DNA from: a virus
Taxonomy: Duplodnaviria; Heunggongvirae; Uroviricota; Caudoviricetes
Length of the DNA stretch: 64,000 nt
Virus record (IMG/VR): IMGVR_UViG_2778260992_000001
Direction: 5' to 3' (one strand)
This document shows, in pieces, positions 2,555-60,524 of the stretch. The stretch's first letter is position 1, and each line of letters begins with the position of its first letter. Under the pieces are notes generated by a model. The model saw only the letters and a program-made list of their open reading frames with translations, ran no database searches and had not been told where the DNA came from. The translations under genes and the position numbers were made by a program.

Positions 2555-2613
2555 ATTGCCATACATAAAATCAAATGCAAAAATAGGTAATCACTTACCT
2601 ATTGAGAAAGAAG

Positions 2614-3207
2614 ATGATTGCAGCCGAAAAAATCAAACAGCGAAAGCGCGACAACTCTCTTCGTGACCTCTGGAGAACACCTGATTGGCTGTTTTCTGCC
2701 ATTCAACGTTATCTTGGGGTGACATTTGATGTTGACGTTGCCTGCAACAAGGACAATGCAAAGCTGCCTAATTTCATAGGCGTTGAGCGTGATGCTTTGA
2801 AATCTGAATGGGGACAGCCAGGTACAATTGCCTTCCTCAATCCACCCTACTCCAAAATCTCCCCCTGGATTGATGCTGCTATACGTGAGCAGGCTCGCGG
2901 AGTTACAACAGTGATGCTAATTCCTCAATCCCTCGATACAAAGTGGTATGAGCGTGCAACAGAGTATGCGAATGAGACGATTATTCTGTCTGGTGGCCGC
3001 GTAGCGTTTGTCGAGCCTGACGTCAATTTGGGTCAGGTAGAAGTAAACATCAACCCCGGTGGCAGTATGCTCGTTGTTTTTCGAGGATTCTGTCAGGACG
3101 CTGGGCACTCTATAAGCAAGATCCCTTTGGACGTAATGAAAAGTCTGGGAGGGTATGATCCTGCGAATGTGGTCAGGAAAAAAAGACCATCAAAGAAGGC
3201 TGCTTAG
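2614..3207 (+). CDS. phage-type DNA N6-adenine methyltransferase (Dam family)
   Basis: translation contains WRTPDWLF, FDVDVAC, FLNPPYS motifs typical of small phage Dam MTases; ATG 2614 preferred over upstream TTG 2602. Confidence 0.7.
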   Translation: MIAAEKIKQRKRDNSLRDLWRTPDWLFSAIQRYLGVTFDVDVACNKDNAKLPNFIGVERDALKSEWGQPGTIAFLNPPYSKISPWIDAAIREQARGVTTVMLIPQSLDTKWYERATEYANETIILSGGRVAFVEPDVNLGQVEVNINPGGSMLVVFRGFCQDAGHSISKIPLDVMKSLGGYDPANVVRKKRPSKKAA

Positions 3208-3392
3208 TTTGTTCTGGCGAGTGTAATTAACCTGCTTCTGTATATAAATAACTACATATTAATTATTAATATACGGAAGCAGGCTGTTTTGTATCAGAGA
3301 CTCCCAGACCTGAACACCACTACAGAATCCACTAGAACCCCTTCTCAGACGCTTTAAAATCGATTTTATGAACCACTTTAAGGAAAACTAAC

Positions 3393-3623
3393 ATGTCATA
3401 CCCGACCAATGTTGTTGCGCTCGTAGAGAGCGATTTTCTGGCTAAGGCTCGTGAAATGATGAAAGATCGCGAGCAGGCTTTCAACTTGTACGAATGGGCA
3501 ATTAAGTGCTTGCATCTTGGGGAGCATCGCGAACTTGTTGAACAGCTTTTAGGTGAGTTGATCAACGAGGTGTTTGCCTTGAATGTTCAACTACATGGTC
3601 GAGAAAATAACCAATCGAAATGA
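3393..3623 (+). CDS. hypothetical small protein
   Basis: 76-aa ORF with RBS aaggaaa upstream. Confidence 0.4.
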   Translation: MSYPTNVVALVESDFLAKAREMMKDREQAFNLYEWAIKCLHLGEHRELVEQLLGELINEVFALNVQLHGRENNQSK

Positions 3624-4795: not shown

Positions 4796-4943
4796 TAAGT
4801 AAGTGTTTACCTATCATTTTAAATCATGTATCTTATCGGCGTCAGGATGACAATGTGTCGGTAAGACACAGTTCCAGGATGGAACGAGAAAGGCGGCTGG
4901 CAATCGCCAGCCGCAACTCTTTCTGACACTGGATGGAGTCCAC

Positions 4944-9765: not shown

Positions 9766-9766
9766 T

Positions 9767-9785
9767 AGGTAAATACTTACTTAAT
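9767..9785. promoter_or_regulatory. palindromic site, class 2 (TAGGTAAGTA..TACTTACCTA)
   Basis: taggtaaatacttacttaa between 8080..9765 and 9827..10531. Confidence 0.45.
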
Positions 9786-23052: not shown

Positions 23053-23115
23053 TATTGTAAGTACATACTTACGATCATAGAATATAAAAATAACCAAAAC
23101 ACTACGGAGAGTGAA

Positions 23116-25307: not shown

Positions 25308-25923
25308 CTGAGAAGAGGGCCAGAAACGGCCCTTTCTCTATAGCCACCAGCTGCCGCAGGGAAATTTTCAGAAACGGCGAGGAACGTATTCATGAGCCGA
25401 CGGGAAACGGCCAGGATTTTTTCGGGAAACGGCTGCATTCGCCTTTATGTAGAAAAAACATCGGGAAGCTGGTGGAATCCAACCAGCGGTTGTCGGACAG
25501 GTGAGCGGGGAAAATTATGATGACTTTCGTCACCTGAGACATCCAGATTTCTTTCGTAGCATAATCACATACGTGATTAAGTGGTGTGATTATGTGAAAA
25601 ATCACGCGCACATAATACGCGAGCGGATACAGAACAAAACAAAATGCCGATCCGCACCGACAAATAAACGCGGATCACATAGCAAGACTAAAAGCCAATG
25701 ATTAACCATACTCTATAGCGCAATATAACGCGTTTTAAGCGCGTTAATGTGTTAAGTAATGGGTATGTACTGGCAAGGATATAAAAGCGCGTCTATGGCG
25801 TTATTTTGGTGCTTATTTTTATGTTGTTGGAGTGAGTTAAAGACAATAAAAAACGCGCCATTGATGGCGCGTTATTGTGGAAGTATTGGAAACGAAAAAA
25901 GCGCCCATAGTGGGCGCTCGATT

Positions 25924-28197: not shown

Positions 28198-28201
28198 GTC
28201 A

Positions 28202-30533: not shown

Positions 30534-30579
30534 AAACCTCTTTCCTTAGTGCCTTTTGTATGTTATTTGGCTATTATAA

Positions 30580-35873: not shown

Positions 35874-35890
35874 GTAAGTAATTATCTAAG
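35871..35890. promoter_or_regulatory. palindromic site, class 2
   Basis: taggtaagtaattatctaag between terminase and portal genes. Confidence 0.4.
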
Positions 35891-35899
35891 GTTATTCAA

Positions 35900-37474
35900 A
35901 TGGAATTGAACGACAAACAAATTAAGGATCTGGTGGCGCGACGCCACCCGGAATACGAAAAGAAAAAAGAACATTGGGACTTCCTCGCCAGCACTTACGC
36001 TGGCGGGCGTGGTTGGTTTACAGACAATATCTTTCGTTACTTTAAAGAGGGAGATCAGGAGTTTAAGGAGCGAGTTGAGCGTGCTTATCGCTTCAACCAC
36101 ACTCGTGAGGTGGTAAACCTCATCAACAAATATCTCTTTAAAGAAGACATTCATAGAAATATCGAAGAGGCACCAGAGCAGATCCGCAATTTCTGGAAAC
36201 GTGCGACCCGCCAGAATGCCTCTATTGACTCATTTATGGCCGCTATTGATTTGCAGTCGTCTATTTACGGTCGCATATGGGTTGTTGTCGATAGCACGAT
36301 GAGTGGTGATGTTGAGTCAGTAGCTGACGAGAAAAAGAAAGATGCTCGCGCCTACGCCTACTGGATTTCACCTCAGCAAATGCTGGATGTGGCATGGGAC
36401 GACGACGGGAATATGTTGTGGGCGTTAATTGTGGAAGTCGCTCGTGATGACGCAGATCCTTTTACTTCTACAGGTCAGGAATACCAACGTTATCGTCTGT
36501 GGACACAAAACGAGTGGTATCTGTTCCGTGAGGAAGTGAAGAAGGGCGCTGGTGGAGCAGGTCGCCGTCAGGCAAAAGTTATTTTAGAGGATAGCGGTGC
36601 GCATAATCTCGGCGTAGTTCCTGTGTTTCCTGTTGATTGTATTGGAGAAAGTGAATCACCGTATTTCAGCCCATCGTTGATCGATGATATCGCTTATCTT
36701 GATCGTGCGGTTGCAAACTATCTGTCAAACCTTGATGCCATTATTCAGGATCAGACATTTAGCCAGTTGGCTATACCGGTACAGTCGCTTTTACCTGGTG
36801 ATGAAAACCACACTAAAGTGCTTGAAATGGGCACAAAGCGAGTCTTCACCTACGATTCTGAAGGTGGAAACCAGCCGTTTTATCTGTCACCAGACCCGAA
36901 ACAAGCTCAGATGATCATCACTACGATTAAGACGGTGATTAACGAAATCTACCATTCAGTTGGTGTAGCTGGTGAGCGAACGAAGCAGGACAACGCACAG
37001 GGAATCGATAACTCATCTGGTGCCGCAAAAATGTATGACTTCCAGCGTGTAAATAGCTTGCTTGTCACAAAAGCAGAGCGTCTGGAAAGGGCTGAACGCC
37101 AAATCATGCTACTGGTTGCGAAATGGATGGGGGTAGATCTGGACGAAGACCACTCTTTAATTGCGTATCCAGAAAGTTTCGATATTCGTGGCCTTACTGA
37201 TGAATTTTCTGTTGCCGAGAAACTGTCGTTACTTCAGGCACCGGACTCTGTACGTCGTCACCAGATGGAAATGCTGATTGAGAAGATTTTCCCGAACATC
37301 ACTGAGGCGATGAAGAAGGAATTTGATAAAGATCTCTTGAATTTTCCGCCAAAAAATGATCTAAATACCCTTGAAAATAAGTCAGTACTTACTTATGATC
37401 AAGGCACAGCCCAAGAAAGCGGGCAAGATCAACCCCGAGGGAATGGGGACTCATCTACTCAAGAGAACGAGTGA
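35900..37474 (+). CDS. portal protein
   Basis: 524 aa; position after large terminase, size and composition consistent with portal. Confidence 0.65.
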   Translation: MELNDKQIKDLVARRHPEYEKKKEHWDFLASTYAGGRGWFTDNIFRYFKEGDQEFKERVERAYRFNHTREVVNLINKYLFKEDIHRNIEEAPEQIRNFWKRATRQNASIDSFMAAIDLQSSIYGRIWVVVDSTMSGDVESVADEKKKDARAYAYWISPQQMLDVAWDDDGNMLWALIVEVARDDADPFTSTGQEYQRYRLWTQNEWYLFREEVKKGAGGAGRRQAKVILEDSGAHNLGVVPVFPVDCIGESESPYFSPSLIDDIAYLDRAVANYLSNLDAIIQDQTFSQLAIPVQSLLPGDENHTKVLEMGTKRVFTYDSEGGNQPFYLSPDPKQAQMIITTIKTVINEIYHSVGVAGERTKQDNAQGIDNSSGAAKMYDFQRVNSLLVTKAERLERAERQIMLLVAKWMGVDLDEDHSLIAYPESFDIRGLTDEFSVAEKLSLLQAPDSVRRHQMEMLIEKIFPNITEAMKKEFDKDLLNFPPKNDLNTLENKSVLTYDQGTAQESGQDQPRGNGDSSTQENE

Positions 37475-37495
37475 TAAGTAACAAAGGGAATTTTT

Positions 37496-38383
37496 ATGAA
37501 ACTGTGGCAAATGCTTTTGGCCCGTCGTGGTCTGATGGATGTTGCTGAAGCGCATGAGCGTGGAGGCGCTGGCGGTGTAGCTGCTGATAATGAGCAGAGT
37601 ACACAAAATCCTGACAAACAGGGTGAACAAAAAGAGCAGCCGAAGGGTGATGACGAATACGCTGGCATGACTCATGAAGAGTTACTGGCCGAACTTCGTA
37701 AAACCAAGAAAGCTGGTGCTGAACTGCTGAAAGAGAACATGAAGCGCAAAGAGAAAGAGCGCACATTGGCCGATCAGCTTGCTCAGTACGGTGATATCGA
37801 CCCGGCGCGTGCTCGCCAGCTTTTAGAAGCTGAACAGGCCGCAGAAAATGCACGTCGTGAGGCGGAGCAAGCTGAACTGGAGCGTCGTGGTGAGTTCGAT
37901 GCTGTTAAAAAACAGATGATCGAAGCACACCAGGCAGAGCTGGCACAGCGTGACGAACGTTATGCAGCACTGGAAAGTGAAAACGCATCACTGAAATCTC
38001 AATTAGTCGAGATGACCGTGGGCGCTTCCTTCAGTAACTCTCTCTTCCTACGTGACAAAGTTCTGATGACTCCGGCAAAAGCCCGCGTGATCTACGGTTC
38101 TCATTTTGAAGTGGGTGAAGACGGTAGCGTAGTGGGTTATGACAAACCGGCAGGTCATAAAGAACGAGCTGTTCTGGTTGACGGTGAAGGTAAGCCGTTG
38201 CCGTTTGAATCCGCGATTGAACGCATTGTGCGGGCAGATCCGGAAGCTGACGCATTGATGCGTAGCGAAGCCAAGCAGGGTGTAGGCTCACATTCCAAAT
38301 CGACCTACACAATATCCCAACCGAAGAACAAGTCGACTATGGATAAGTTGGCCTCCGGTCTGGGGAAAATTGGACTTAAGTAA
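37496..38383 (+). CDS. putative scaffolding protein
   Basis: 295 aa, charged coiled-coil-rich, between portal and major capsid genes. Confidence 0.55.
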   Translation: MKLWQMLLARRGLMDVAEAHERGGAGGVAADNEQSTQNPDKQGEQKEQPKGDDEYAGMTHEELLAELRKTKKAGAELLKENMKRKEKERTLADQLAQYGDIDPARARQLLEAEQAAENARREAEQAELERRGEFDAVKKQMIEAHQAELAQRDERYAALESENASLKSQLVEMTVGASFSNSLFLRDKVLMTPAKARVIYGSHFEVGEDGSVVGYDKPAGHKERAVLVDGEGKPLPFESAIERIVRADPEADALMRSEAKQGVGSHSKSTYTISQPKNKSTMDKLASGLGKIGLK

Positions 38384-38408
38384 CATCTAAATCAAAGGGA
38401 ATTGATAG

Positions 38409-39284
38409 ATGCCATTACTGCGTGAAGAAGCTGAAAAGCTGTCTAACAACGAACTTGAACAGGGTGTGATCGAAACTATCATCGATCGCGATGACCTGTT
38501 TGCCATCTTGCCTTTTATGAAAATTAATTCAAAGGCATATCTGTACAACCGTGAAAAAACGCTGAGTGAAGCTACCTTCATCGACGTTAACGACACCATC
38601 CCTGAAGGTGCAGCAACCTTCGAAGAATGCGTTGCGAAACTGCGTATTCTGGCTGGTGACGTAGACGTTGATAAATTCCTGGCAACCACTATGGCCGACA
38701 CCAATAACCAGTTGGCTATTCAGGTTCGTCAGAAAGTTAAAGGTCTGGCTCGTGCGTTCCGCCGCAACCTGATTTTGGGTGACTCCAGCTCCAACAACAA
38801 AGCGTTCGACGGTATTCCACGCCTGATGCATGAAGATCAGAAGATCGACATCGCAGGTGCATCTATGACTTTCTCCATGTTCGACGAACTGGTCGATGCG
38901 GTGAAAGATCTTGGTGCTGACTGCATCATGATGCGTTCAGAGCACCTGCGTGCTTACCGTGCGCTGCTGCGTACAGTAAACGTAGGCCCGTCTGAAATCA
39001 TGATGGAGAACTTCGGTCGTCCGATGCTGTGTCATAACGGCGTTCCGTTCATTATCAACGACTTCATCCCGACCGATTCTGGCAAAGCAAGCATCTACTG
39101 CCTGCATCTGTCAGAAGAGAACGGCGTTACTGGTCTGTATGGCGGCGACAACGCAGGTATCGTTGTTGAAAACATTGGTACTGTACAGAACAAAGACGCA
39201 GTACGTACCCGTGTGAAGTGGTACTGCTCTCTGGCGAATAAGCACGATAAGGCTATCGCTGCACTGACCAATGTAAAAATTTAA
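38409..39284 (+). CDS. major capsid protein
   Basis: 291 aa, position, strong RBS and codon usage, strong terminator downstream. Confidence 0.65.
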   Translation: MPLLREEAEKLSNNELEQGVIETIIDRDDLFAILPFMKINSKAYLYNREKTLSEATFIDVNDTIPEGAATFEECVAKLRILAGDVDVDKFLATTMADTNNQLAIQVRQKVKGLARAFRRNLILGDSSSNNKAFDGIPRLMHEDQKIDIAGASMTFSMFDELVDAVKDLGADCIMMRSEHLRAYRALLRTVNVGPSEIMMENFGRPMLCHNGVPFIINDFIPTDSGKASIYCLHLSEENGVTGLYGGDNAGIVVENIGTVQNKDAVRTRVKWYCSLANKHDKAIAALTNVKI

Positions 39285-39317
39285 TCAGTGTAGTAGATAA
39301 GCAGTTATCTATGTTAA

Positions 39318-39345
39318 AGGGTGGGCTATACGCCCACCCTTTTTG
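39318..39345 (+). terminator. rho-independent terminator after major capsid gene
   Basis: agggtgggctatacgcccaccct + tttt. Confidence 0.6.
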
Positions 39346-39357
39346 TAGGAGCGAGAA

Positions 39358-40278
39358 ATGCCAGAACAAAAGATGAAGATTACGGAAGAGGCATTTTCGG
39401 ATTTTACGGGGCATATGTGCCGTGCCGGATTTACCAATTCTATCTCCGATGAACCTTTAACCGAGCGGCAACAAAGTCAGCTATCTGCTTGTTTGCAGGC
39501 GGTTCCCTTCTCCCAATCCGTAAACATAACTCCGGCTTCACCATCAGTTTTGGTTGGGAAAACTGTTCAACTTAGTGCAGGTATTAGTATGGGTAAGAGT
39601 GCCAGTTCATTCACCTGGAAGTCAGCCAATGATCAAATTGCAACCGTTAACGGCACTGGATTAGTAACTGGCGTAGCCCCAGGCAAAGTAAAAATTACTG
39701 CAACTGATCAGGAAACCCAGCTTTCCGCTTCAGTGGAAGTCACCGTAAATCCGGTAGCCGTTCAATCCGTAACGGTAACGCCAGACTCAACCTCTGTTGA
39801 GAAAGGAAAATCAGTCAGTCTGAAAGCGAATGTTCAGCCGTCAAATGCGACGAATAAGGCTGTTACCTGGTCTTCCAAAAATGAAGATAAGGCAACGGTA
39901 GACCAGAGCGGGAACGTAACTGGTGTAGAAGTTGGCACTGCGACGATTGAGATCGTTTCCCAAGATGGCAGCAAAAAGGCAACTGCAACGGTGGAAGTAA
40001 CTGCGCCTGTTGTGGCTGTTACTGGTGTCGAAATCGACCCAAATAGCACAACCGTTGAGGCAAACAAAACTGTTCAGCTGATCGCAAATGTCGAGCCGGT
40101 AGGAGCCACAAATAAAACCGTTACTTGGGAATCCAAAAATACCGAGTTTGCAACGGTGGACAGCGAAACCGGTGTTGTAACTGGTGTTGCGGCTGGCACT
40201 GCCACAATCGAGGTTACTACACAAGATGGTAGCCACAAAGCGACAGCGACCGTAGAGGTCACTGCCGCACAGGAATAA
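39358..40278 (+). CDS. Ig-like (Big_2-type) domain protein, probable head decoration/accessory protein
   Basis: three tandem Ig-like repeats each ending ATVDQ/ATVDS..GxVTGVxxGTATIE. Confidence 0.6.
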   Translation: MPEQKMKITEEAFSDFTGHMCRAGFTNSISDEPLTERQQSQLSACLQAVPFSQSVNITPASPSVLVGKTVQLSAGISMGKSASSFTWKSANDQIATVNGTGLVTGVAPGKVKITATDQETQLSASVEVTVNPVAVQSVTVTPDSTSVEKGKSVSLKANVQPSNATNKAVTWSSKNEDKATVDQSGNVTGVEVGTATIEIVSQDGSKKATATVEVTAPVVAVTGVEIDPNSTTVEANKTVQLIANVEPVGATNKTVTWESKNTEFATVDSETGVVTGVAAGTATIEVTTQDGSHKATATVEVTAAQE

Positions 40279-40285
40279 CCGATAT

Positions 40286-40307
40286 TGGGCGGCGAAAGCC
40301 GCCCAAG
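40286..40307 (+). terminator. hairpin (possible terminator/attenuator)
   Basis: ttgggcggcgaaagccgcccaa, no clear T-run. Confidence 0.35.
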
Positions 40308-40322
40308 TGGAGAGAAAGCGTT

Positions 40323-40757
40323 ATGAAACCAGCAAAAATTGTTTTATTAGAACCGCAATTTTCCGGTTATTCGGGAATGCTGTGCGGCGTTCAGTTCGAG
40401 AACGGGGTATCCGTAGCGGAGTTGCCTTTTATCGATCAGCAGAGAATTTGTGCATCAATGCGAGCGTCAACAGTAGAGGGAAAAAATGTTTCCCCATCTG
40501 CCGCATACAGTGATCGTGGTGAATTGGCCGCAGACCTGATTACAGAGCCAGTAGCGCCTGACATTGTGCCAATGAAACGTGGGACACCAGATGAACCGGC
40601 CAAACAGATCCAGACTTTCACACGAGAAGAGCTGGAGTCCATTGCAGACAACGAAGGTATTGCCGGTCTACGAGTTATTGGTAATCAGGTTGGTGTTAAA
40701 GCGAAAGGAATTGTCGAGATGATTGAAGGCATCCTGAAAGCACAAGGCGGTGAGTAA
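40323..40757 (+). CDS. hypothetical protein (head-tail region)
   Basis: 144-aa ORF. Confidence 0.4.
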   Translation: MKPAKIVLLEPQFSGYSGMLCGVQFENGVSVAELPFIDQQRICASMRASTVEGKNVSPSAAYSDRGELAADLITEPVAPDIVPMKRGTPDEPAKQIQTFTREELESIADNEGIAGLRVIGNQVGVKAKGIVEMIEGILKAQGGE

Positions 40758-41590
40758 TGGCGCAGATCGACTCGTATCGTAGCGGTGAAGCTGTTTCTCT
40801 TTCATTTGCCTTCAACGTGCTGGATATCGAATCTGCCACCTACACAGTAAAGGACAGCACCGGGGCTATTCTCGTTGATGGCGAGCCGCTAGAAATTACC
40901 AGCGGGCAAATGTCGATTCCGGTTGTCGTGTCGGCTGAATATAACCTGCTCTCTGAGAAAGAACGCGATCTGCGGTACGTCATTGTGAAGGCTGTTGCAT
41001 CGGGTCTGACGCATGAAGGGCGGCAAATGTATGTTCTGCTGAATAGTTTTGAACTGTCGATACCAGAACAGTCGTTTGCAACTGTCGCTGATGCTCAAAT
41101 GCAGGCGATCGATATGCTGAATGGGGACACTTTGCTGTCGGATGGTGAAGGCTTAATGCGCAAGCGTCTCATTGAGGCTACCAGACGAATTAAAACTTTA
41201 CCGTTCTCAATCCGCAAAATTCTACGTATCGACTTTGACCGATACGATCGCCCTCAAAATATGCTGAATGTGTATGACATTCCGTGGGGAGCAGACGGAG
41301 CGTACCGGCATGATTTAGTCGATTGGGAAAAGATGACGCAGGAGAAGTTTGAAGAGTTCCCTGACTACTTCAAAGAAGCGTTGATGCTTGCCGTTGTCAA
41401 CGAAGCGTGTGAGATCGCAAATGGCAATGATGTTGCCGCAGCACGAGAAGATGGCATTTTGTCAGAGTCCATCGGTGAAACAACCAACATGTACCGTACC
41501 GGTAAAGCTGCAAACGTGCATGTGGCTCGCAGTACCTGGCGCTTGCTGGTCAGTTACATTAACAACCGTATGATTGTTCGCCGTGCGTAA
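40757..41590 (+). CDS. hypothetical protein (head-tail region)
   Basis: 277-aa ORF, ATGA-coupled. Confidence 0.45.
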   Translation: MAQIDSYRSGEAVSLSFAFNVLDIESATYTVKDSTGAILVDGEPLEITSGQMSIPVVVSAEYNLLSEKERDLRYVIVKAVASGLTHEGRQMYVLLNSFELSIPEQSFATVADAQMQAIDMLNGDTLLSDGEGLMRKRLIEATRRIKTLPFSIRKILRIDFDRYDRPQNMLNVYDIPWGADGAYRHDLVDWEKMTQEKFEEFPDYFKEALMLAVVNEACEIANGNDVAAAREDGILSESIGETTNMYRTGKAANVHVARSTWRLLVSYINNRMIVRRA

Positions 41591-41669
41591 CGCTAGTCGC
41601 ATTATTTACTTTTGGTCGAAATGGTTTTTGGCCAGTAATGAGAGCGACCGACAACAACAGGGAGAGAGC

Positions 41670-42014
41670 ATGAATATTTCATGGCAAACAGAAATTGCGA
41701 TCTACCGCTTTGGCGCAAAGAACGTTTACGGCGAGGCGCAATTGCAATTCGTCAGGAAGACGAATGTCGGCGTGGTTAAGTTCGAACAGAGTAATGAGAA
41801 ATCGTCAGTTCGTGCTGATAGCTCTGGTAGCCGTGGTAAGGCGAGTCTGGAGTTGTTTGATGCTGTGTTAGTTGTCCCTTTAGAAGCGGCTGTACAACTT
41901 GATGATGTGCTGATCCTTGAAGGTCAAAAATTAAAGGTGTCCAGTGTTCATCGCCGCTGGGGGCTACGAGGAAGACCTGGGCATCTTGAAGTGGGGGCGA
42001 ATATATGGGTCTGA
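41670..42014 (+). CDS. hypothetical protein (possible head-tail adaptor)
   Basis: ATG 41670 after RBS ggagagag; 114 aa. Confidence 0.4.
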   Translation: MNISWQTEIAIYRFGAKNVYGEAQLQFVRKTNVGVVKFEQSNEKSSVRADSSGSRGKASLELFDAVLVVPLEAAVQLDDVLILEGQKLKVSSVHRRWGLRGRPGHLEVGANIWV

Positions 42015-42478
42015 AATACGATGCGCATCAGTTCAAACGTGCGGGGAATAGACTCAACAACAGCCAGAAAGCATTTAAGCGATATCTTATTCGGGACATG
42101 GAAAAGCTGGCGCGTTTGGTTGAGCGTCTCAGCCGTGCAATGGCTCCGCTGGAAACCGGATCTCTGGAGACAGCTATCTTTGCCAGGGTGATTAAAGAAG
42201 GTTATTCAGGGCTGCGCATTGAGCTTTCTGTGTCTGGAGCAAAACCACGTCAGGGGCATCCGGGCGTAGAAGTCGGTGACTATGCTAAGTACATGGAGCT
42301 GGGTAAATATCGACTCGGTTATCTTTCTCGAATGAAGAACGTGACAAACCCACCAATTGCCGGTGTTAAACCTCGTGTTGGGCCACACTTTCTGGAAAGA
42401 GCGGTGGAAATTAGCGAGAAGCAGTTCTCAGAAGCGATTCTTGAGGCTGCCAGAAAAGCCGGTTTTACGAGAGGTTAA
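42005..42478 (+). CDS. hypothetical protein (possible head closure/neck protein)
   Basis: 157-aa ORF overlapping upstream gene. Confidence 0.4.
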   Translation: MGLKYDAHQFKRAGNRLNNSQKAFKRYLIRDMEKLARLVERLSRAMAPLETGSLETAIFARVIKEGYSGLRIELSVSGAKPRQGHPGVEVGDYAKYMELGKYRLGYLSRMKNVTNPPIAGVKPRVGPHFLERAVEISEKQFSEAILEAARKAGFTRG

Positions 42479-42479
42479 T

Positions 42480-42863
42480 GTGTTTATCGAAGCGTTTGCA
42501 AGTTTGATGCAGAAGGCAAAGATTGGCACGGTCGGGACTGACATTTTCTGTCACTACTTGCCTGCCAATGTGAAATCTGGCGTCCTGCTTATTAACCCAA
42601 ATACCGGCATCAGCATCGATCATGAGCTACAGGGCTTTTATCACGAATCATTCACAATCATTGTGCGTGGTTCGTCAATTACTACGACGGTTGAGAAAGC
42701 CAATAAAATCATTGAGATGTTTCCAGTAGAGGAAACGGAATCTGGTGGTGTTTATTTTCGACTTGTACGACCGATGGCGATGCCAATCATTTATCCCAAA
42801 AATGATGGGGCATTAATAGAAGCAGGCATTCCTGTTGAATTTGCTGGCTATTTATTGAATTAA
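42480..42863 (+). CDS. hypothetical protein (possible tail completion/terminator protein)
   Basis: GTG start after RBS agaggt; position before major tail gene. Confidence 0.35.
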   Translation: MFIEAFASLMQKAKIGTVGTDIFCHYLPANVKSGVLLINPNTGISIDHELQGFYHESFTIIVRGSSITTTVEKANKIIEMFPVEETESGGVYFRLVRPMAMPIIYPKNDGALIEAGIPVEFAGYLLN

Positions 42864-42869
42864 GTTAAT

Positions 42870-42889
42870 TGGTAAGTATATACTTACCA
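42870..42889. promoter_or_regulatory. palindromic site, class 2 (perfect)
   Basis: tggtaagtatatacttacca upstream of major tail gene. Confidence 0.5.
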
Positions 42890-42937
42890 TTAGCGCAATG
42901 AATGCGTAGAATTAACGGAAAAAGGAGTTTTCCATCA

Positions 42938-43684
42938 ATGTCTAATACCCATGTAAAAAACATCAAACTTGGTGCCTGTAAGGTGTCGTTTGGTGGTGTG
43001 GATTTGGGTTACACCAAAGGTGGTGTTCAGGTTGAAGTAGCCACTGAAACGCTGAAAGTCACCGTCGATCAGTTGGGGCAGACCGTAATTTCCGAATTAG
43101 TTCAGGGGCGCAACATTACCATCACCGCGCCTCTGGCTGAGTCTGTACTCCAAAACATGGTTGACCTGATGCCCGGTTCTACTCTGAGCGAAGATGACAA
43201 CTCTGTCACGATCACATCTGCACAGGGCGTCAACCTGATCGATGTGGCGAAGGAGCTGGTTCTGACTCCGCAGGACACCACCGACTATGTGTTGACCATT
43301 CCGAAAGCGGCAACCGCGGGCAACTTCACTATGACCTACCAGTCTGATGATGTTCGTGTGTTCTCTGTTCAGTTCAGCGCATACCCGGATGATGAAGGCG
43401 TTCTGGGCAAAATGAGCGGTCCCAAACCGGTAAAAACTGTGTCGATCACACCGGAATCTCCAACCGTAAAAGCTGGAGAAACTGTGCAACTGACAGCCGA
43501 AATCACTCCAGCTGATGCCGCAGACAAAACCGGTGTTTGGGAATCTGAAGACCAGGAAAAGGCCACGGTAGATCAAACGGGTCTTGTGCGTGGTGTGGCG
43601 CAGGGTACTGCAAACATCTCCTTCACCAGCAATAGCGGTGCTAAGAAGGCAACTAAGTCAGTAACGATTAACTCCGCAGATTAA
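42938..43684 (+). CDS. major tail protein with C-terminal Ig-like domain
   Basis: RBS aaaggag; C-terminal ~80 aa Big_2-like (ATVDQTGLVRGVAQGTANISF); position before chaperone/tape-measure genes. Confidence 0.65.
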   Translation: MSNTHVKNIKLGACKVSFGGVDLGYTKGGVQVEVATETLKVTVDQLGQTVISELVQGRNITITAPLAESVLQNMVDLMPGSTLSEDDNSVTITSAQGVNLIDVAKELVLTPQDTTDYVLTIPKAATAGNFTMTYQSDDVRVFSVQFSAYPDDEGVLGKMSGPKPVKTVSITPESPTVKAGETVQLTAEITPADAADKTGVWESEDQEKATVDQTGLVRGVAQGTANISFTSNSGAKKATKSVTINSAD

Positions 43685-43697
43685 TCAGTAATTAAGC

Positions 43698-43724
43698 AGA
43701 GGCTCAGGATGAGCCTCTCTTTTA
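43698..43724 (+). terminator. terminator/attenuator hairpin after major tail gene
   Basis: agaggctcaggatgagcctct + cttttaaaa. Confidence 0.5.
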
Positions 43725-43739
43725 AAAGGATTTTAACCA

Positions 43740-44057
43740 ATGACCAAATTACTCGATCTCGATTCCATTCTGCCTCCGAAGAAAAGTATCAAATTTGGCG
43801 GTCAGGAATATCCCATCGTTGAAATGACGGTTGGTTTGTTCGTTTCCATCAAGCAGATGGAAGGCAAAGATCTCATGAACATGTCCCCTGTTGAGCAAGT
43901 GACAGCTTATGCAGATCTGGTTCGTAAGGTTATCCCTTCAGTACCTGACGAAGTTCTTGAAAAACTGACTGTTCCGCAACTCCAGCAGATCTTCACCTTC
44001 GCTATGGAAGTGATTGATGAAGAAAACGAAAAAGCGGCTGGCGAAGGGGCAAAGTAA
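43740..44057 (+). CDS. tail assembly chaperone (lambda G-like)
   Basis: 105-aa ORF immediately upstream of tape measure gene. Confidence 0.6.
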   Translation: MTKLLDLDSILPPKKSIKFGGQEYPIVEMTVGLFVSIKQMEGKDLMNMSPVEQVTAYADLVRKVIPSVPDEVLEKLTVPQLQQIFTFAMEVIDEENEKAAGEGAK

Positions 44058-49364: not shown

Positions 49365-49446
49365 GTATCTGGATAAGTAAGTACTAATTTACTATCATTG
49401 TGGCGCTGACAGGATGTTAGCGCCTACTTATTTCAAGGATGAAACA

Positions 49447-56292: not shown

Positions 56293-56310
56293 TAGGTAAG
56301 TACTTACTTA
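56293..56310. promoter_or_regulatory. palindromic site, class 2
   Basis: taggtaagtacttactta between J and tail fibre genes. Confidence 0.45.
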
Positions 56311-56354
56311 ATGGCGGGCAAGGATAGCCCGCCAAATCAAGGAGCATATTCAAC

Positions 56355-59300
56355 ATGTGGTACAGGGAAGGTACTATCACATTTACACAGGGTAGCAATA
56401 CTCTGGTTGGGGCAGGGACAGCCTGGAACGTAACAGCTAATGGTGTGTTGCCTGGGATGATCGTCATTGGCCCCGACAACAAGCTGTATGAGATCAAGCG
56501 CGTAACCAGTGATACGAACATTGTTCTCTCAGAACCTTATACCGGCGAAACTCAGTCTGAAGTTCCGTGCCGAATCATTACGACCTATGAAGGCGACTTA
56601 ACACAGTTTAGCGCGCGCTTTACTGCACTAATGTCGCGTATGTCGGCTGATTCAAAGTCCATGCGCAGTTGGTTGACTGCTCTGGATGAGGTGACAATCG
56701 AGCGTGAAGACGGTACAGAAGTGACCGTTAAGCCGCTAATGCAGATCGTCAACGAGCACAACGAAAACGTTGAGTGGTATAAAAATAACACTGACGCGAT
56801 TGATGCTGCTGGCGACAAAGCTCGTGAGGCGGCGGCCAGTGCTGCCGCAGCAGCAGAAAGCGCCAATACCGCTGGAGAAAAAGCCTCTCAAGCGTCTCAA
56901 AGTGCATCCGCTGCGGCATCCTCACAAAGTGCTGCAAGTGCGAGCGCAACTGCTGCGAAAAAATCTGAAACGAACGCACAAGCCGCAAAAGAAGCGGCAG
57001 CAGAATCAGCATCTGTAGCGTCGGCCAAAGCATCGGAGGCAGCAACATCTGCGTCCAGTGCCTCTGCATCTAAGGATGCAGCCAAAGCATCAGAGACTAA
57101 CGCTTCATCGAGCGCAAACGCGGCAGCATCATCGGCAACAGAAGCTGCAAATTCGTCTAAGGCAGCAAAAACGTCAGAGGCAAACGCAAAAGCATCTGAA
57201 ACGGCAGCCGAACAGAGTGCATCGTCTGCAAACAGTTCGAAATCTGCGGCAGAAGCGTCAGCAAGCGCAGCCTCAGCAAGTGCGGATAGTGCTTCATCAA
57301 GTGCAACAGCGGCAGGAAAATCTGCGGATAGCGCATTGTCATCAGCGACAACAGCTACCACAAAAGCGACAGAGGCGACGAGTCAGGCTACAGCTGCTAA
57401 AAATTCAGCATCTGCAGCAAAAACCTCTGAAACAAATGCAAAGACTTCAGAAGACAATGCTGCTTCCTCTAAGGCGGCAGCTGCTGAATCTGCAAGTTCT
57501 GCGTCTGCATCAGCCTCCTCAGCATCCGCTTCAAAAGATGAGGCTACCAAGCAGGCATCAGAAGCGAAGGGCAGTGCTTCAACGGCATCCACGAAAGCAA
57601 CAGAGGCGGCAGGCAGTGCGACGGCTGCATCTCAGAGCAAAACTGCTGCTGAATCCGCTGCGACCCGTGCGGAAGCTGCTGCTGATCGTGCTGAAGAGAT
57701 TGCCGGTGCGGTTGCGATGGAAGACGCAAGCCTTACAACTAAAGGTGTTGTGAAACTTAGCAGTGCTGTCGATAGCACCAGTGAATCGCTGGCCGCAACG
57801 CCAAAAGCAGTTAAAGCAGCCAATGACAATGCGAATAGCAGGGTGCCATCTAACCGAAAAATTAACGGAAAAGCACTGACTGCGGATATAACATTAACGC
57901 CGAAAGATATTGGTACTTTAAATTCAGTAACGATGTCTTTCTCTGGCGGGGCTGGGTGGTTCAAACTGGCTACGGTTACCATGCCACAAGCGAGTTCCAT
58001 CGTTTACATCACATTGATTGGTGGTGCTGGATATAATGTTAACTCCCCTATGCAGGCTGGTATATCTGAACTTGTTCTTCGTGCGGGAAATGGAAATCCA
58101 AAAGGTCTTACTGGTGCGTTATGGCGAAGGACATCGGTTGGATTTACTAATTTTGCATGGGTGAATACATCCGGCGATACATATGATATTTATGTTGAGA
58201 TTGGCAATTATGCGACGAGTGTAAATGTCCACTGGGATTGTACTGCAAATGCGTCAGTTTCTATTTATACATCGCCAACATATTCAGCGAGTAAGCCTGC
58301 CAGCGTTACCGATGGTGTTGTTTATACGATGTATAGCTCACATCAGAAACCTACGCCATCAGATATTGGAGCACTGCCAACAACCGGAGGAACAGTTTCT
58401 GGTCCGTTGTCTGTTACAGGCGGATTAACTGGTTCATTGAATGGTAATGCAAGTACAGCAACGAAATTACAGACGACAAGAACTATCGGTGGAGTTGGTT
58501 TCGACGGTTCTGCCAATATTAATCTTCCAGGTGTAAACACTACGGGTAATCAGAACACCACTGGTAATGCCGCAACTGCTACAAAACTACAGACGGCAAG
58601 AACTATCGGCGGCGTGAGCTTTGATGGTACTGCAAATATTAATTTGCCAGGTGTTAATACGACTGGTAATCAGAATACAACAGGTAATGCGGCTACTGCT
58701 ACGAAGTTGCAGACTGCGCGTACTATTAATGGGGTGTCGTTTGACGGTTCGGCAAATATTTCCTTGTCACCAGCAAATATAGGTTGCCCGGCATCTCCTA
58801 CTGGTTGGTTAACTACAGGAAGTAATGGCGGAGCAATAACAACAGCCCAGTTAGTGACGTTATTGCAAAATAATGGAGCCTTTAACACAAAGGCATGGAT
58901 TGCTCGATGTGCGTGGGCCTATGCCAATAGCGCAACCATACCAAATAGTGAAACTGGTTGTGGCGTTATTCCATTGGCAGGAGCTGTTATAGAAGTATTT
59001 AATAACGGTAGTAGTTCAAATAATTATACGATCCGCATAACAACGGCCACAACGACAAGTGTTTCCGGTGCTCTCACTAATGCGGAGTTTATCTATGTAT
59101 TTAATGGCACAGATTATTCTCCAGGATGGCGAAGAGTATATAACACGAAAAACAAACCAACTGCATCTGACGTTGGTGCATTACCTCTTACCGGTGGTAC
59201 ATTATCTGGAGGTTTGACATCTTCTGGTGAGATCGTTTCAAAATATGCAAATGGTTTCCGCATTGCTTACGGTAGCTTTGGGTTCTTTATCCGTAATGAC

Positions 59301-60383
59301 GGCGGCAGCACATATTTCATGCTAACAGCATCAGGAGATACGTTAGGTTCATGGAACGGCTTGCGACCGATTACAATTAATAATACTAGCGGTGTTGTGT
59401 CTATTGGTAATGGACTAAATGTTACTGGTGGCGTAAATGGTAGTTTGAACGGTAATGCTTCAACAGCTACGAAGTTGCAAACAGCGAGAAACATCAATGG
59501 TGTTAAGTTTGATGGCTCAGGCGATATCAACATTAATACATTGGTATCTCGTGGCCGAGTTACGGCGTTAAGCGGCTCTACTCAAGGCACTGCTGGCATT
59601 CAAATGTACGAGGCGTACAACAATAGCTATCCGACCACGTATGGCAACGTATTGCACATGAAAGGTGCGAGTGCTGCTGGCGAGGGTGAGTTGCTTATTG
59701 GCTGGAGTGGTACGAGCGGTGCACATGCGCCGGTTTTCATTCGCTCCCGAAGAGATACCACTGATGCAGCATGGTCAGCGTGGGCACAGGTATATACCGC
59801 TAAGGATTCAATCCCTGGTGTGAATACAACCGGTAATCAGAACACTACTGGTAATGCTGCCACCGCCACAAAATTGCAGACAGCAAGGAAAATTGCTGGT
59901 GTGGCGTTTGATGGCTCTGCCGATATTACTTTGACTGCGGCTAACCTTAATGCCTATACGAAAACAGAGGTAACAAACCTTCTAAGTTCCTATGTGAAGA
60001 GCAGTTCTCTTCCAAGCATGACTGTGCGAACTTCCTCTGTTTCAGGTGGGGATATGGGCATGAGTTTGTCCGCATTCATTAGCCACCTTAAATCAAATGG
60101 GGCGTTTAGCAAAAGTTATTGGATTGGCTTTGGCGATGCTATGGGATTCAATGCTGGCAGTATCAACAATATAACGGGATTTGGTGCTGTAGAATTAGCA
60201 GAATCCATAATCGAAGTTTTTAATCTACCTAATGGTGATTATACAATTCGTTTAACGACGTCACACAAAGCTGACTACGGTGGGATTACAAACGCAATCC
60301 TCGTTTATCACTACCGCAGTAATAGAAACCCGGCAGGTCAATGGCTTAAATTTGCCGGTACTCTTGGGGCTACAAACAACTGA
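56355..60383 (+). CDS. side tail fibre protein
   Basis: Ala/Ser-rich SETNAK-type low-complexity region, conserved AATPKAVK fibre motif, repeated GNAATATKLQTARTIGGV modules. Confidence 0.85.
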   Translation: MWYREGTITFTQGSNTLVGAGTAWNVTANGVLPGMIVIGPDNKLYEIKRVTSDTNIVLSEPYTGETQSEVPCRIITTYEGDLTQFSARFTALMSRMSADSKSMRSWLTALDEVTIEREDGTEVTVKPLMQIVNEHNENVEWYKNNTDAIDAAGDKAREAAASAAAAAESANTAGEKASQASQSASAAASSQSAASASATAAKKSETNAQAAKEAAAESASVASAKASEAATSASSASASKDAAKASETNASSSANAAASSATEAANSSKAAKTSEANAKASETAAEQSASSANSSKSAAEASASAASASADSASSSATAAGKSADSALSSATTATTKATEATSQATAAKNSASAAKTSETNAKTSEDNAASSKAAAAESASSASASASSASASKDEATKQASEAKGSASTASTKATEAAGSATAASQSKTAAESAATRAEAAADRAEEIAGAVAMEDASLTTKGVVKLSSAVDSTSESLAATPKAVKAANDNANSRVPSNRKINGKALTADITLTPKDIGTLNSVTMSFSGGAGWFKLATVTMPQASSIVYITLIGGAGYNVNSPMQAGISELVLRAGNGNPKGLTGALWRRTSVGFTNFAWVNTSGDTYDIYVEIGNYATSVNVHWDCTANASVSIYTSPTYSASKPASVTDGVVYTMYSSHQKPTPSDIGALPTTGGTVSGPLSVTGGLTGSLNGNASTATKLQTTRTIGGVGFDGSANINLPGVNTTGNQNTTGNAATATKLQTARTIGGVSFDGTANINLPGVNTTGNQNTTGNAATATKLQTARTINGVSFDGSANISLSPANIGCPASPTGWLTTGSNGGAITTAQLVTLLQNNGAFNTKAWIARCAWAYANSATIPNSETGCGVIPLAGAVIEVFNNGSSSNNYTIRITTATTTSVSGALTNAEFIYVFNGTDYSPGWRRVYNTKNKPTASDVGALPLTGGTLSGGLTSSGEIVSKYANGFRIAYGSFGFFIRNDGGSTYFMLTASGDTLGSWNGLRPITINNTSGVVSIGNGLNVTGGVNGSLNGNASTATKLQTARNINGVKFDGSGDININTLVSRGRVTALSGSTQGTAGIQMYEAYNNSYPTTYGNVLHMKGASAAGEGELLIGWSGTSGAHAPVFIRSRRDTTDAAWSAWAQVYTAKDSIPGVNTTGNQNTTGNAATATKLQTARKIAGVAFDGSADITLTAANLNAYTKTEVTNLLSSYVKSSSLPSMTVRTSSVSGGDMGMSLSAFISHLKSNGAFSKSYWIGFGDAMGFNAGSINNITGFGAVELAESIIEVFNLPNGDYTIRLTTSHKADYGGITNAILVYHYRSNRNPAGQWLKFAGTLGATNN

Positions 60384-60501
60384 TTTAGGGATTATTTATA
60401 TGGCTGTGTGGTTTAAAAATGCGATTTCACAGCCGCAATCATAGGGATATATTAGTGAGTTACTAGATGCGAATATGAACAACCGTTAAACGGTATATGT
60501 A

Positions 60502-60524
60502 TAGGTAGGTAAGTATATACCTAC
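60502..60524. promoter_or_regulatory. palindromic site, class 2
   Basis: taggtaggtaagtatatacctac upstream of lysis cassette. Confidence 0.45.

Follow-up and report, generated by a model that had tools for sequence, protein, structure and literature searches.

A recurrent 18-bp palindrome at gene junctions of SSU5-type phage-plasmids is a candidate operator for a dimeric phage regulator

The stretch of DNA analysed here, a window of 64 kb, belongs to an SSU5-like phage-plasmid and is 98.5% identical to Cyrano, a phage of E. coli LF82. A palindrome recurs at its gene junctions. The nine copies listed in the original prediction were all found, each within 0-4 nt of its predicted position, which confirms the recurrence as a real observation. 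The first copy (TAGGTAATCACTTACCTA, 2584-2601) precedes dam, has arms that are invariant in 26 distinct orthologous sequences and is adjoined upstream by a sigma-70-like promoter (2556-2584; TTGCCA-17-AAAAAT with an upstream TG), such that the end of this tool-detected promoter is the first base of the palindrome. The second (4796-4813) overlaps or follows the stop codon of the RNase H gene, its flank forms the hexamer TATCAT and on its 3' side lies a structured GGA-loop leader or sRNA. The third (9766-9783) comes right after the stop codon of a DUF4942 gene and is followed by a conserved extended -10 element (TGTAAGAAT) beginning 6 nt downstream. A weaker copy (30580-30597) occupies the 64-bp divergent region between a uvsW-like helicase gene on the minus strand and the first ParB-like gene on the plus strand; on its helicase side is a perfect TATAAT (30573-30578, minus strand) lacking a -35 element, and the Acinetobacter counterpart of this site carries TATACT, also on the helicase side.

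Further along, the opening TAG of the palindrome at 35871-35888 closes the large terminase gene as its stop codon and the portal ATG follows 11 nt on, leaving no space for a promoter plus leader. This is the most widely conserved site: across relatives it overlaps the stop codon of the terminase gene, with the portal ATG 11-19 nt beyond, and it is present in every enteric, Morganella, Xenorhabdus, Photobacterium, Halomonas and Acinetobacter relative examined, the palindrome being absent at this junction in the two most distant MAG loci (L144 and L145). Two sites additional to the nine lie nearby. One (37378-37395) is within the 3' end of the portal ORF, approximately 100 nt before the next gene, and is kept across lineages with lineage-specific half-sites. 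The other (39294-39311) lies 9 nt past the stop codon of the major capsid gene, directly 5' of an intrinsic terminator (39316-39344), and the same arrangement of palindrome and terminator is found in Acinetobacter, Halomonas, Morganella and Xenorhabdus. A 22-bp copy (42869-42890, including a 20-bp perfect palindrome) precedes the major tail gene, a degenerate one (49374-49394) precedes tail gene L, where Klebsiella phage pJN2-26 has a regular 18-mer, and another (56293-56310) precedes the tail-fibre gene. The last copy (60506-60523) stands before the lysis cassette with a conserved extended -10 element (TGATATAAA) 19 nt downstream, which places the centre of the palindrome at approximately -42. 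Additional weak or variant sites occur at 3624 and 23057; the latter (GTAAGTACATACTTAC, 23057-23072), a possible member of the family, is flanked by an intrinsic terminator on one side and a TAGAAT hexamer on the other. Some copies adjoin stop codons or ribosome-binding sites.

The element is an 18-bp site of two-fold symmetry, TARGTAAGT·ACTTACYTA, with A/T-rich flanks that are likewise symmetric in enteric genomes, where the centre of the motif is AAGTACTT. Within the window, TARGTAA-N4-TTACYTA matched 13 times against 0.5 expected, TAGGTAAGTA with at most one mismatch 14 times against 2.0, and TARGTAANNNNTTACYTA with at most two mismatches 13 times against 0.53, with 0 of 100 shuffles reaching so high a count for either of the latter two; 15 sites had a PWM score of at least 10, compared with 0.35 in shuffles. 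This enrichment rejects a chance origin of the family. The 7+4+7 spacing is specific, given that a gap of 4 returned 12 hits and other gaps 0-5, with the exception of a gap of 0, whose 11 hits are the identical sites read in an overlapping register shifted by 4 nt. Because the half-site TAAGTAAGT repeats internally every 4 nt, the 22-bp sites, such as that before the major tail gene, are two overlapping 18-bp registers, and a separate 22-bp spacing class was rejected.

Beyond the window, the genomes of Cyrano, SSU5 and pJN2-26 (~105 kb each) contain 19-22 strong sites, or 28-32 in total, where shuffles yield fewer than 0.5. The sites are confined almost entirely to gene junctions in the lytic gene arrays, and 19 of the 20 strong sites of Cyrano are intergenic. 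The original description of the family as lying mainly in the late operon fails at this scale: about half of the ~20 strong sites in the three complete genomes precede replication, recombination and nucleotide-metabolism genes, the early-type genes behind sites being dam, nrdA, sbcD, thyX, gp32, uvsW and those of a helicase region. Of 120 IMG/VR loci with exact matches, approximately 80 are SSU5-like, and unrelated contigs have single hits only. The expectation that site positions would be conserved in related phages was borne out, as the same junctions keep a palindrome; at orthologous sites the arms are invariant, and the centre and flanks drift. In more distant relatives the half-site takes other forms (TCAGTCA in Acinetobacter, TAAGTCA in Photobacterium, TAGGTAT in Morganella and Xenorhabdus). 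The Acinetobacter relative has 27-31 sites versus 0.3 expected, and Photobacterium, Halomonas, Morganella and Xenorhabdus each possess their own palindrome variant, the central AGTACT being missing from those of Photobacterium and Morganella. As judged from these comparisons, the palindrome is under strong purifying selection and its half-sites have co-evolved into different forms across host lineages.

A palindrome between cistrons could be read by a protein as DNA or could fold once transcribed, and RNA hairpins for processing or translational coupling had been suggested. The data give this suggestion no support. Paired cells at symmetric positions amounted to 86.2% versus 86.4% in shuffles (335 of 500 shuffles scoring at least as high), there was no covariation between the arms (score 0.132 versus 0.137 in shuffles), and G·T and A·C mismatches between the arms were about equally frequent. 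When the transcribed palindromes were folded, the predicted hairpins were weak (-1 to -9.1 kcal/mol; z from -0.07 to -3.8): two of ten sites folded no better than shuffles, a top-scoring site had a z of approximately 0 and the very well conserved site at 4796 reached only -1 kcal/mol. The two halves of the palindrome evolve independently in these alignments, as expected of protein half-sites, and this independence, together with the absence of covariation and the weak folds, argues that the palindrome is recognised as double-stranded DNA by a symmetric dimer and does not act as an RNA hairpin. The palindrome has the properties of a binding site for a phage DNA-binding regulator and would define an undescribed regulon; in the searchable literature no description of the motif was found, nor relevant data on SSU5/pHCM2 regulation or on transcription starts.

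Relative to recognisable predicted promoters, the palindrome lies at +1, at ~-30, at ~-42 or where there is no promoter. Several sites are followed, at a distance of 6-8 nt or 19 nt, by predicted extended -10 elements that are conserved, and the distance to the best-conserved -10 ranges from overlapping to +22. Since this geometry is not fixed, a pure internal-promoter reading covers only a subset of the sites. The proposal of internal late promoters or activator sites stands in so far as it invokes a regulatory site at the DNA level, and its late-specificity is lost, given the copies before dam, nrdA, sbcD, thyX, gp32 and uvsW.

The best explanation, tentatively adopted here, is that the palindromes are operators for a phage-encoded symmetric dimeric regulator that silences lytic transcription units. 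One such regulator would co-ordinately control essentially all lytic transcription units of an SSU5-type phage-plasmid, and its main role would presumably be control, probably of negative sign, in the plasmid-prophage state. At a promoter-overlapping site the bound protein would block initiation (dam at +1; the ead, CYRAN_34, sbcD and tRNA promoters at ~-30; holin at ~-42), and at a promoterless cistron junction it would prevent read-through as a roadblock or insulator (between terminase and portal, within the portal ORF and after the capsid gene). Operators are favoured, besides the findings above, by the following: the placement of the sites varies against conserved predicted promoters, as it does at the P1 C1 operators; the terminase/portal site is conserved where no promoter can serve the portal gene; and in published RNA-seq of the LF82 lysogen all genes behind strong sites are silent, and the uvsW and CYRAN_34 promoters, which have weak sites, are active. 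Nevertheless, the trend between site strength and leaky expression in the same lysogen data, although negative, is not significant (rho -0.25 to -0.44, p 0.05-0.3), which counts against the operators, as does the single large drop in expression that was checked, from CYRAN_30 to CYRAN_31: a long hairpin terminator accounts for it, and the drop was rejected as evidence of a roadblock.

The P1 C1 operators are likewise present in many copies (~17 or more) dispersed over an enterobacterial phage-plasmid, overlap sigma-70 promoters at the -35, the spacer, the -10 or +1 (annotation of the P1 record) and would let one protein silence many lytic operons. They are, however, asymmetric 17-mers (ATTGCTCTAATAAATTT) absent from late operons, whereas the element described here is a symmetric 18-mer found also between late cistrons, and tblastn of the window, Cyrano, SSU5, pJN2-26 and the Acinetobacter plasmid returned no C1 homologue at E <= 1. 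A second parallel is found in the stoperators of mycobacteriophage L5, the sites of its gp71 repressor, of which approximately 30 lie in the short intergenic spaces of early and late operons, often by stop codons, and which are thought to stop elongating polymerase in the prophage. Copy number and intergenic placement in both early and late operons are shared, but the L5 sites are 13 bp, asymmetric and orientation-dependent, compared with 18-bp palindromes here, and host phylum and repressor family differ.

The occupant of the sites in lysogeny is most likely the Xre-type repressor CYRAN_45, a candidate binder encoded outside the window. In the LF82 lysogen CYRAN_45, listed as the master repressor, is expressed at ~10x background (PMC9928086, Table 1, S1 Table), and in Cyrano as well as in pJN2-26 the gene is preceded by a perfect 14-bp core (GGTAAGTGCTTACC), just 3' of a -10-like TAATAT. 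It is this combination of expression in the lysogen and a variant site at its own promoter that favours CYRAN_45. Against the operator reading, phage SSU5 retains perfect sites in the absence of CYRAN_45, which implies either another binder or a recent deletion. The Xre gene beside the integrase was found in 865 PLSDB plasmids, and the Xre protein changes at several positions, though not interpretably against the half-sites.

The alternative occupant would be an 88-aa winged-helix protein encoded within the window (33523-33789, plus strand; CYRAN_123, SSU5_130, phrog_900), which is conserved in every lineage with a palindrome family. Its AlphaFold model (pLDDT 82) has MarR-family repressors as best PDB matches and comprises the winged-helix core alone, without the MarR dimerisation helices; no Pfam family was found for the protein and phrog_900 is of unknown function. 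MarR-family operators are palindromes of 16-20 bp bound by winged-helix dimers, a size that the present element matches, and the MarR-like fold of the model co-occurs with the palindromes throughout. Its recognition helix (TKQSMQFSIRALIKK), however, is almost invariant although the half-sites differ by lineage, and therefore a recognition helix that tracks the half-site is unsupported for this protein.

The main rival to the operators, and a less likely one, is that each palindrome is an activator box for promoters without a -35 element. A phage activator, for example the MarR-like protein at 33523-33789, would bind at approximately -28 to -11 and recruit sigma-70 RNA polymerase to a -10 hexamer starting with the terminal TA of the palindrome, and early and late genes would share one 'lytic' promoter class, comparable with the P1 -22 box and the T4 MotA box. 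Consistent with this, in 58-75% of enteric sites the final two bases of the palindrome are also the first two of a TAnnnT. This signal, however, is symmetric, being equally frequent on the mirrored upstream side, so that the -2 offset is not directional evidence, and a fixed-distance -10 in enteric genomes was rejected. The Acinetobacter relative presents a different picture: at 12 of 27 sites the downstream end is replaced by a -10-like hexamer (TATACT/TAnnnT) with no -35, this hexamer is directional (~12/27 along transcription versus 2/27 mirrored) and it switches side at the sole opposite-strand gene, that of the uvsW-like helicase. Such a directional hexamer resembles an activator-dependent promoter and so weighs against operators. 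Where a site is fused to a -10, the leader is mostly 34-117 nt long, and the TATAAT on the enteric uvsW side points the same way. Furthermore, the other palindrome family of this genome lies at classical promoters with GATAAT and a TTGACG-like -35, against which the missing -35 at the 18-bp palindromes stands out, and under macrophage conditions published RNA-seq shows expression rising exactly at the sites 9019, 57447 and 59400.

A precedent for an activator box exists in the P1 late promoters, in which a palindromic box near -22 is followed by a -10 without a -35 (AAGTNACTT-N4-TAnnAT; PMC10695390). The points of comparison are the centre of the enteric motif and the TAnnnT that often starts at the palindrome end. 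The box here, however, is 18 bp versus 9 bp in P1, its centre is ~1.5-2.5 bp nearer the hexamer, the sites are not confined to late genes and many have no usable -10 or leader. A homologue of the P1 activator Lpa was not found, tblastn giving nothing below E = 0.8 and hhalign of the winged-helix family against Lpa a probability of 0.15%. Against activation stand also the variable spacing to the best-conserved -10, the universally conserved sites that lack room for a leader (terminase/portal, dam, CYRAN_31 and ParB), the near-invariance of the winged-helix recognition helix and the lysogen data, in which transcripts of uvsW and CYRAN_34 are present and the winged-helix gene does not rise above background.

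It is conceivable, if rather improbable, that the palindrome is bifunctional, serving as a promoter box with an activator, possibly the MarR-like 88-aa protein, and as an operator or roadblock with the Xre repressor. Were this so, two proteins competing for ~25 identical sites would switch all early and late units together, in a system conserved from Enterobacteriaceae to Acinetobacter, Photobacterium and Halomonas with half-sites retuned in each lineage. Phage-plasmids of the SSU5, pHCM2 and pMT1 type are widespread in E. coli, Klebsiella, Salmonella, Yersinia pestis and Acinetobacter, are clinically common and can carry resistance genes (PMC9600943). The motif offers a testable map of a lytic regulon that takes in ~25 sites, a pair of candidate regulators and, across five lineages, natural variants of specificity, and would aid the annotation of transcription units in these elements.

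Very unlikely is the proposal that the sites load the two ParB-like proteins encoded at 30598-31964, in the manner of parS, KorB-OB or Noc-NBS, and seed a CTP-dependent clamp that would serve silencing, partition or the organisation of the genome. KorB and Noc typically act at palindromes that are dispersed, and in the RK2 KorB, ParB and Noc systems palindromes dispersed on a plasmid are used for global silencing; here, ParB-family genes lie beside one site. Two proteins with a ParB N-terminal domain occur in all lineages directly 3' of a palindrome, and ParB1 has a GxxRxxA box (GGEHRWRAA) and matches Spo0J, ParB and Noc. Unlike those systems, though, only ParB_N was detected in the ParB-like proteins, a match to the helix-turn-helix region of Spo0J was not credible and the C-terminal halves are acidic; with no helix-turn-helix domain detected, they were rejected as binders. 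Both genes are moreover silent in the lysogen and hence have no maintenance role in the plasmid state, and the genuine partition operon, with ParA and neighbours, is located elsewhere with the other palindrome family.

Scarcely to be expected, given the pairing and folding results, are RNA-level hairpins in polycistronic transcripts, acting in RNase III/RNase E processing, as 3' stabilisers, in nut- or RAT-like antitermination or as translational operators. The sites are transcribed, lie between cistrons and are often beside ribosome-binding sites or just 5' of terminators, and nearby intergenic hairpins do covary, such that RNA structure matters in these regions. A possible partner would be an FljA-like RNA-binding protein (27676-28275), a full-length FljA homologue (PF03614, E = 2.5e-84); FljA binds a 5'-UTR hairpin. 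The Acinetobacter relative, however, has a palindrome family yet no FljA, p37 or Cra homologue, and given this and the lack of an RNA signal the FljA-like protein was set aside as binder. In addition, Rfam gave no match, the predicted transcription start of dam falls within its palindrome, and a conserved stem with a free loop is the reverse of most protein-hairpin recognition.

Least probable are selfish or structural repeats with no dedicated trans-acting factor, serving as recombination linkers for module exchange like T4-type PeSL cassettes or REP elements: the sites at 56293 and 60506 do bracket the highly variable tail-fibre module, as in Cyrano and SSU5, with the holin-side site kept in pJN2-26 and the fibre genes unrelated, but the fixed positions of orthologous sites, arms invariant over long divergence and lineage-specific half-sites indicate sequence-specific selection at each site rather than the spread of a mobile repeat, one site lies within coding sequence, and homology usually carries on across both sides of a site.

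It is very probable that a symmetric, phage-encoded regulator binds the recurrent 18-bp palindromes as double-stranded DNA and that these sites mark the boundaries of the lytic transcription units. Nucleotide identity over positions 34000-44000 identifies the window as an SSU5-like phage-plasmid, with 98.5% identity to Escherichia phage Cyrano (pLF82), 81% to Salmonella phage SSU5 and, for Klebsiella phage-plasmids (pJN2-26 among them), approximately 78%. On the Cyrano coordinates, position 34000 of the window falls near 150 and position 1 near 74,500. The position weight matrix consensus is TAGGTAAGT·ACTTACCTA, with R/Y at positions 3 and 16, four loosely conserved central bases and flanks that are A-rich upstream and T-rich downstream. 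Allowing up to two mismatches, TARGTAANNNNTTACYTA has 13 matches in the window against 0.53 expected, a count reached in none of 100 shuffles, and the 7+4+7 spacing is specific. All nine palindromes named in the original prediction are present, to which are added one at 39294, 9 nt past the major capsid gene, and one at 37378, within the portal ORF. The longer palindromes at 42869 and 49374 do not form a separate geometry: both score well in the 18-bp model, the internal period of 4 in the half-site TAAGTAAGT meaning that each holds two overlapping 18-bp registers. The complete genomes compared (Cyrano, SSU5 and pJN2-26) carry 28-32 sites each by position weight matrix, 19-22 of them strong, against fewer than 0.5 in shuffles. 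Nearly all are intergenic, most lying at -11 to +15 nt from the preceding stop codon and the remainder 120-160 nt past it and 0-16 nt ahead of the next start codon. Placement mainly in the late operon, as had been proposed, does not hold, since sites are also found ahead of dam, nrdA, sbcD, thyX, gp32, the helicase region and the tRNA cluster, and one lies in front of the uvsW operon, which runs in the opposite direction; the plasmid-maintenance, toxin-antitoxin and minus-strand accessory genes are without sites. Searched with TAGGTAAGTNNTTACCTA, IMG/VR yielded 120 loci, of which approximately 80 are SSU5-like, often with several sites each, and the unrelated contigs have single matches.

Among aligned orthologous junctions the 7-bp arms show little or no variation, and drift is seen in the central bases and in the intergenic sequence around the site; at the dam junction, for example, the arms are invariant across 26 distinct sequences. 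The enteric motif is not found in a distant relative from Acinetobacter baumannii, which shares the gene order of the window and has a large terminase with 60% identity to the window's; this relative has its own palindrome, aTCAGTCAGTACTGACTGAt, in 27-31 copies against 0.3 expected. These Acinetobacter-type sites (TCAGTCAGT) occur at junctions equivalent to the enteric ones: terminase/portal, uvsW/ParB, nrdB/nrdA, before sbcD, after the capsid gene beside a terminator, and in the repressor-switch region. Further lineages, taken from a GTDB genome scan with terminase alignment, have TAGGTAT-N4-ATACCTA (Morganella and Xenorhabdus), TAAGTCA-N4-TGACTTA (Photobacterium) and TAAGTAA-N4-TTACTTA (Halomonas); their sites, too, fall between terminase and portal, within the portal gene near its 3' end, and past the capsid gene. 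The retention of a site inside coding sequence, together with the lineage-specific half-sites, indicates a sequence-specific trans-acting reader. As a regulon signal the palindrome is well supported and extends across the lineage, in a plasmid family of medical relevance, and the natural specificity variants make the responsible regulator directly testable. The Halomonas sulfidaeris locus (AP019514.1, 1.89 Mb), whose terminase shares 65% identity with the window's, is a structural module of SSU5 type within a 4.2-Mb chromosome record, so the element may be integrated in that lineage rather than a plasmid.

There is no single geometry between site and promoter, promoter calls being consensus matches throughout. 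At dam a conserved predicted promoter, TTGCCA-17-AAAAAT, which was independently found by a scan tool, ends at base 1 of the palindrome, so that the site would cover the transcription start. An extended -10 (TGTAAGAAT or TGnCATAAT) is conserved at ead, CYRAN_34, sbcD and the tRNA cluster; it begins 6-8 nt downstream, placing the site centre at approximately -30. The lysis cassette has a conserved TGATATAAA 19 nt downstream of its site, placing the centre there at approximately -42. The terminase/portal palindrome includes the terminase stop codon and ends 11-19 nt ahead of the portal ATG, directly before the ribosome-binding site, and there is likewise no space for a leader at the ParB and CYRAN_31 sites. 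Intrinsic terminators follow several sites at 1-27 nt. Negative control in the plasmid-prophage state is tentatively preferred as the mechanism, since it would explain why the geometry varies, why sites are universally conserved where no promoter can operate, why the repressor's own promoter has a variant site, and how genes are expressed in the lysogen. Palindromes overlapping promoters would occlude them, those at junctions would act as roadblocks or insulators, and the likely occupant would be the Xre-type repressor CYRAN_45.

The main alternative, which is not exclusive of negative control and is possible although unlikely, is that the palindrome is an activator box for promoters without a -35 element, in the style of P1 late promoters. 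The hexamer starting from the palindrome's terminal TA fits TAnnnT in 58-75% of enteric sites; given that the mirrored upstream side does so in 42-67%, this is a symmetric feature of the flanks and carries no directional evidence in enteric sites. The Acinetobacter sites are directional, the upstream end always being ...aTC and the downstream end either symmetric GAT or TATACT/TAnnnT, the latter found in approximately 12 of 27 sites against approximately 2 of 27 on the mirrored side. At the uvsW-like helicase of this relative, the sole adjacent gene on the opposite strand, TATACT is on the helicase side, and where sites are fused to a -10 the leaders are mostly 34-117 nt. These directional fusions favour an activator box, as does the enteric uvsW promoter, where a perfect TATAAT is without a -35.

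Published RNA-seq of the LF82 lysogen (PMC9928086) places all genes behind strong palindromes, and the gene for an 88-aa winged-helix protein (33523-33789), at background, and two promoters with weak palindromes, uvsW (site score 17) and CYRAN_34 (site score 23), are transcribed. Across 20 strong sites the relation between site score and downstream expression is negative and not significant (rho -0.25 to -0.44, p 0.05-0.3), and under macrophage conditions expression rises at sites 9019, 57447 and 59400 and falls at others; these data come from non-induced cultures at a resolution too coarse for the sign of regulation. For the one expression drop examined, 64-fold between CYRAN_30 and CYRAN_31, the palindrome was rejected as the cause because a long hairpin terminator explains it: at Cyrano (L004) 31150-31215, beyond the window and after the partition operon, a perfect hairpin (GACCTGCTTCTGTATATA...TATATACAGAAGCAGGTC) is followed by TTTT, with a degenerate copy of the palindrome, TAAGTAAATTAGTATTTA, in its loop.

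CYRAN_45 is a protein of 128 aa encoded beyond the window, adjoining the integrase; its expression in the LF82 lysogen is approximately 10 times the local background and it is listed as the master repressor (PMC9928086, Table 1, S1 Table). It is present in 865 PLSDB plasmids, pHCM2-like and pMT1-like among them, and absent from phage SSU5. In Cyrano a perfect 14-bp core, GGTAAGTGCTTACC, lies ahead of CYRAN_45 just 3' of a -10-like TAATAT, pJN2-26 has GGTAAGTACTTACC at the equivalent position, and the Acinetobacter switch region holds two degenerate Acinetobacter-type sites. The 88-aa protein is, besides TerS, the only small DNA-binding candidate kept in all lineages, SSU5 and Acinetobacter included; its AlphaFold model is a winged helix (pLDDT 82) with MarR-family repressors as best PDB matches, and its recognition helix is almost invariant, yet the half-sites vary between lineages. 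That the palindromes are loading sites of a ParB type is very improbable: the two ParB-like proteins have the ParB CTPase-type N-terminal domain, and were rejected as binders as they are without a recognisable helix-turn-helix domain. These two proteins belong to a four-gene cluster (30598-33513) directly upstream of the packaging genes, which is kept as far as the Acinetobacter relative and silent in the lysogen; the other two members are an ABC-type ATPase and a protein annotated in Cyrano as an ABC-type ATPase with a fused acetyltransferase domain, and one of the ParB-like proteins has an intact GxxRxxA CTP-binding motif. An FljA-like protein, p37 and Cra were rejected as binders since the Acinetobacter relative has no homologue of them, and no homologue of the P1 regulators Lpa and C1 was found.

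FljA is a post-transcriptional repressor of phase-1 flagellin, and Klebsiella is non-flagellate. The full-length homologue at 27676-28275 on the minus strand (PF03614, E = 2.5e-84; weak C-terminal Hfq-like match) has annotated orthologues in SSU5 (SSU5_121), Cyrano (CYRAN_114) and Klebsiella pJN2-26, shows low to moderate expression in the LF82 lysogen and is probably an accessory gene acting on host flagellin.

RNA hairpins, also offered in the original prediction, are a very improbable reading. A hairpin function predicts that symmetric positions covary and that G·U is tolerated better than A·C, and the sites show neither. In each genome the two halves are Watson-Crick complementary just as often as independent halves would be, G·T mismatches are as frequent as A·C ones (21 vs 19, 14 vs 10 and 16 vs 13), paired cells amount to 86.2% against 86.4% in shuffles (at or above the observed value in 335 of 500) and the covariation score is 0.132 against 0.137. 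The predicted hairpins are weak (-1 to -9 kcal/mol), the highly conserved site 4796 folding at just -1 kcal/mol, and Rfam gave no match at threshold anywhere in the window. Given that site-specific hairpins nearby do covary, pairing in the palindrome would have been detected; the lack of covariation and of a G·U preference, with the weak folds, argues for recognition of the palindrome in double-stranded DNA by a symmetric dimer. Of these neighbours, the 5' leader of the major tail gene (42891-42935) forms a small hairpin whose stem changes in compensatory fashion between relatives (GCGCA..TGCGT, GCACC..GGTGC, GTGTC..GACAC) and then an invariant second hairpin, GGAAAA-AGGAG-TTTTCC, with the Shine-Dalgarno sequence in its loop. 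The other, 4833-4925, between palindrome 4796 and ORF 4944, is a conserved region of four hairpins without an Rfam match. One stem covaries (GTGTC/GACAC, GTACC/GGTAC, GTGCT/GGCAC), GGA is present in two loops (GTCA-GGA-TGAC and GTTCC-AGGA-TGGAAC), another GGA overlaps the next gene's ribosome-binding site and a GC-rich hairpin follows at 4893-4914; the region resembles a leader of the CsrA-binding type or a small sponge RNA.

No description of the motif was found in the searchable literature. Like the P1 C1 operators, the palindromes are numerous, are scattered across a phage-plasmid and overlap promoters, here predicted ones, at positions that vary, and like the L5 stoperators they are tens of intergenic sites in early and late operons. 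However, both known types are asymmetric and no C1 homologue is present, so the palindromes belong to neither. The P1 late-promoter box, AAGTNACTT-N4-TAnnAT, resembles the centre of the enteric motif but differs in length, spacing and gene class, Lpa is lacking, and the likeness is lost in the Photobacterium and Morganella variants.

Least probable is that the palindromes are recombination linkers. Palindromes 56293 and 60506 bound the tail-fibre module (56293-60523), to which the modules of SSU5 and pJN2-26 are unrelated: there is a P1 S-like fibre in Cyrano, a different fibre with an adhesin in SSU5 and a 12-kb fibre gene in pJN2-26. Sites flank the module on both sides in Cyrano and SSU5, pJN2-26 retains the site before the holin gene, and the shared 18-mers could serve as exchange points for this module.

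A different palindrome family, of 15 bp, AAAACAANTTGTTTT, presumably the one the earlier reader had called the first, has 15 matches in the window against 0.6 expected (5692, 6421, 19324, 19375, 22653, 23556, 24306, 24791, 33906, 33931, 63477 and others). These lie approximately 12 nt downstream of good -10 hexamers (GATAAT), some with a recognisable -35, and would therefore fall at approximately +6 of the transcripts, just before the ribosome-binding site. They are mostly ahead of small accessory genes and in Cyrano also of parA and the helicase gene; just ahead of the small terminase gene there are two copies and then a terminator-like hairpin, and the family is absent from the Acinetobacter relative. 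Finally, identical GC-rich hairpins, AGCGCCCATAGTGGGCGCT, at 25900-25918 and 26396-26414, approximately 500 bp apart around a small minus-strand ORF, are probably bidirectional terminators or a duplicated element.
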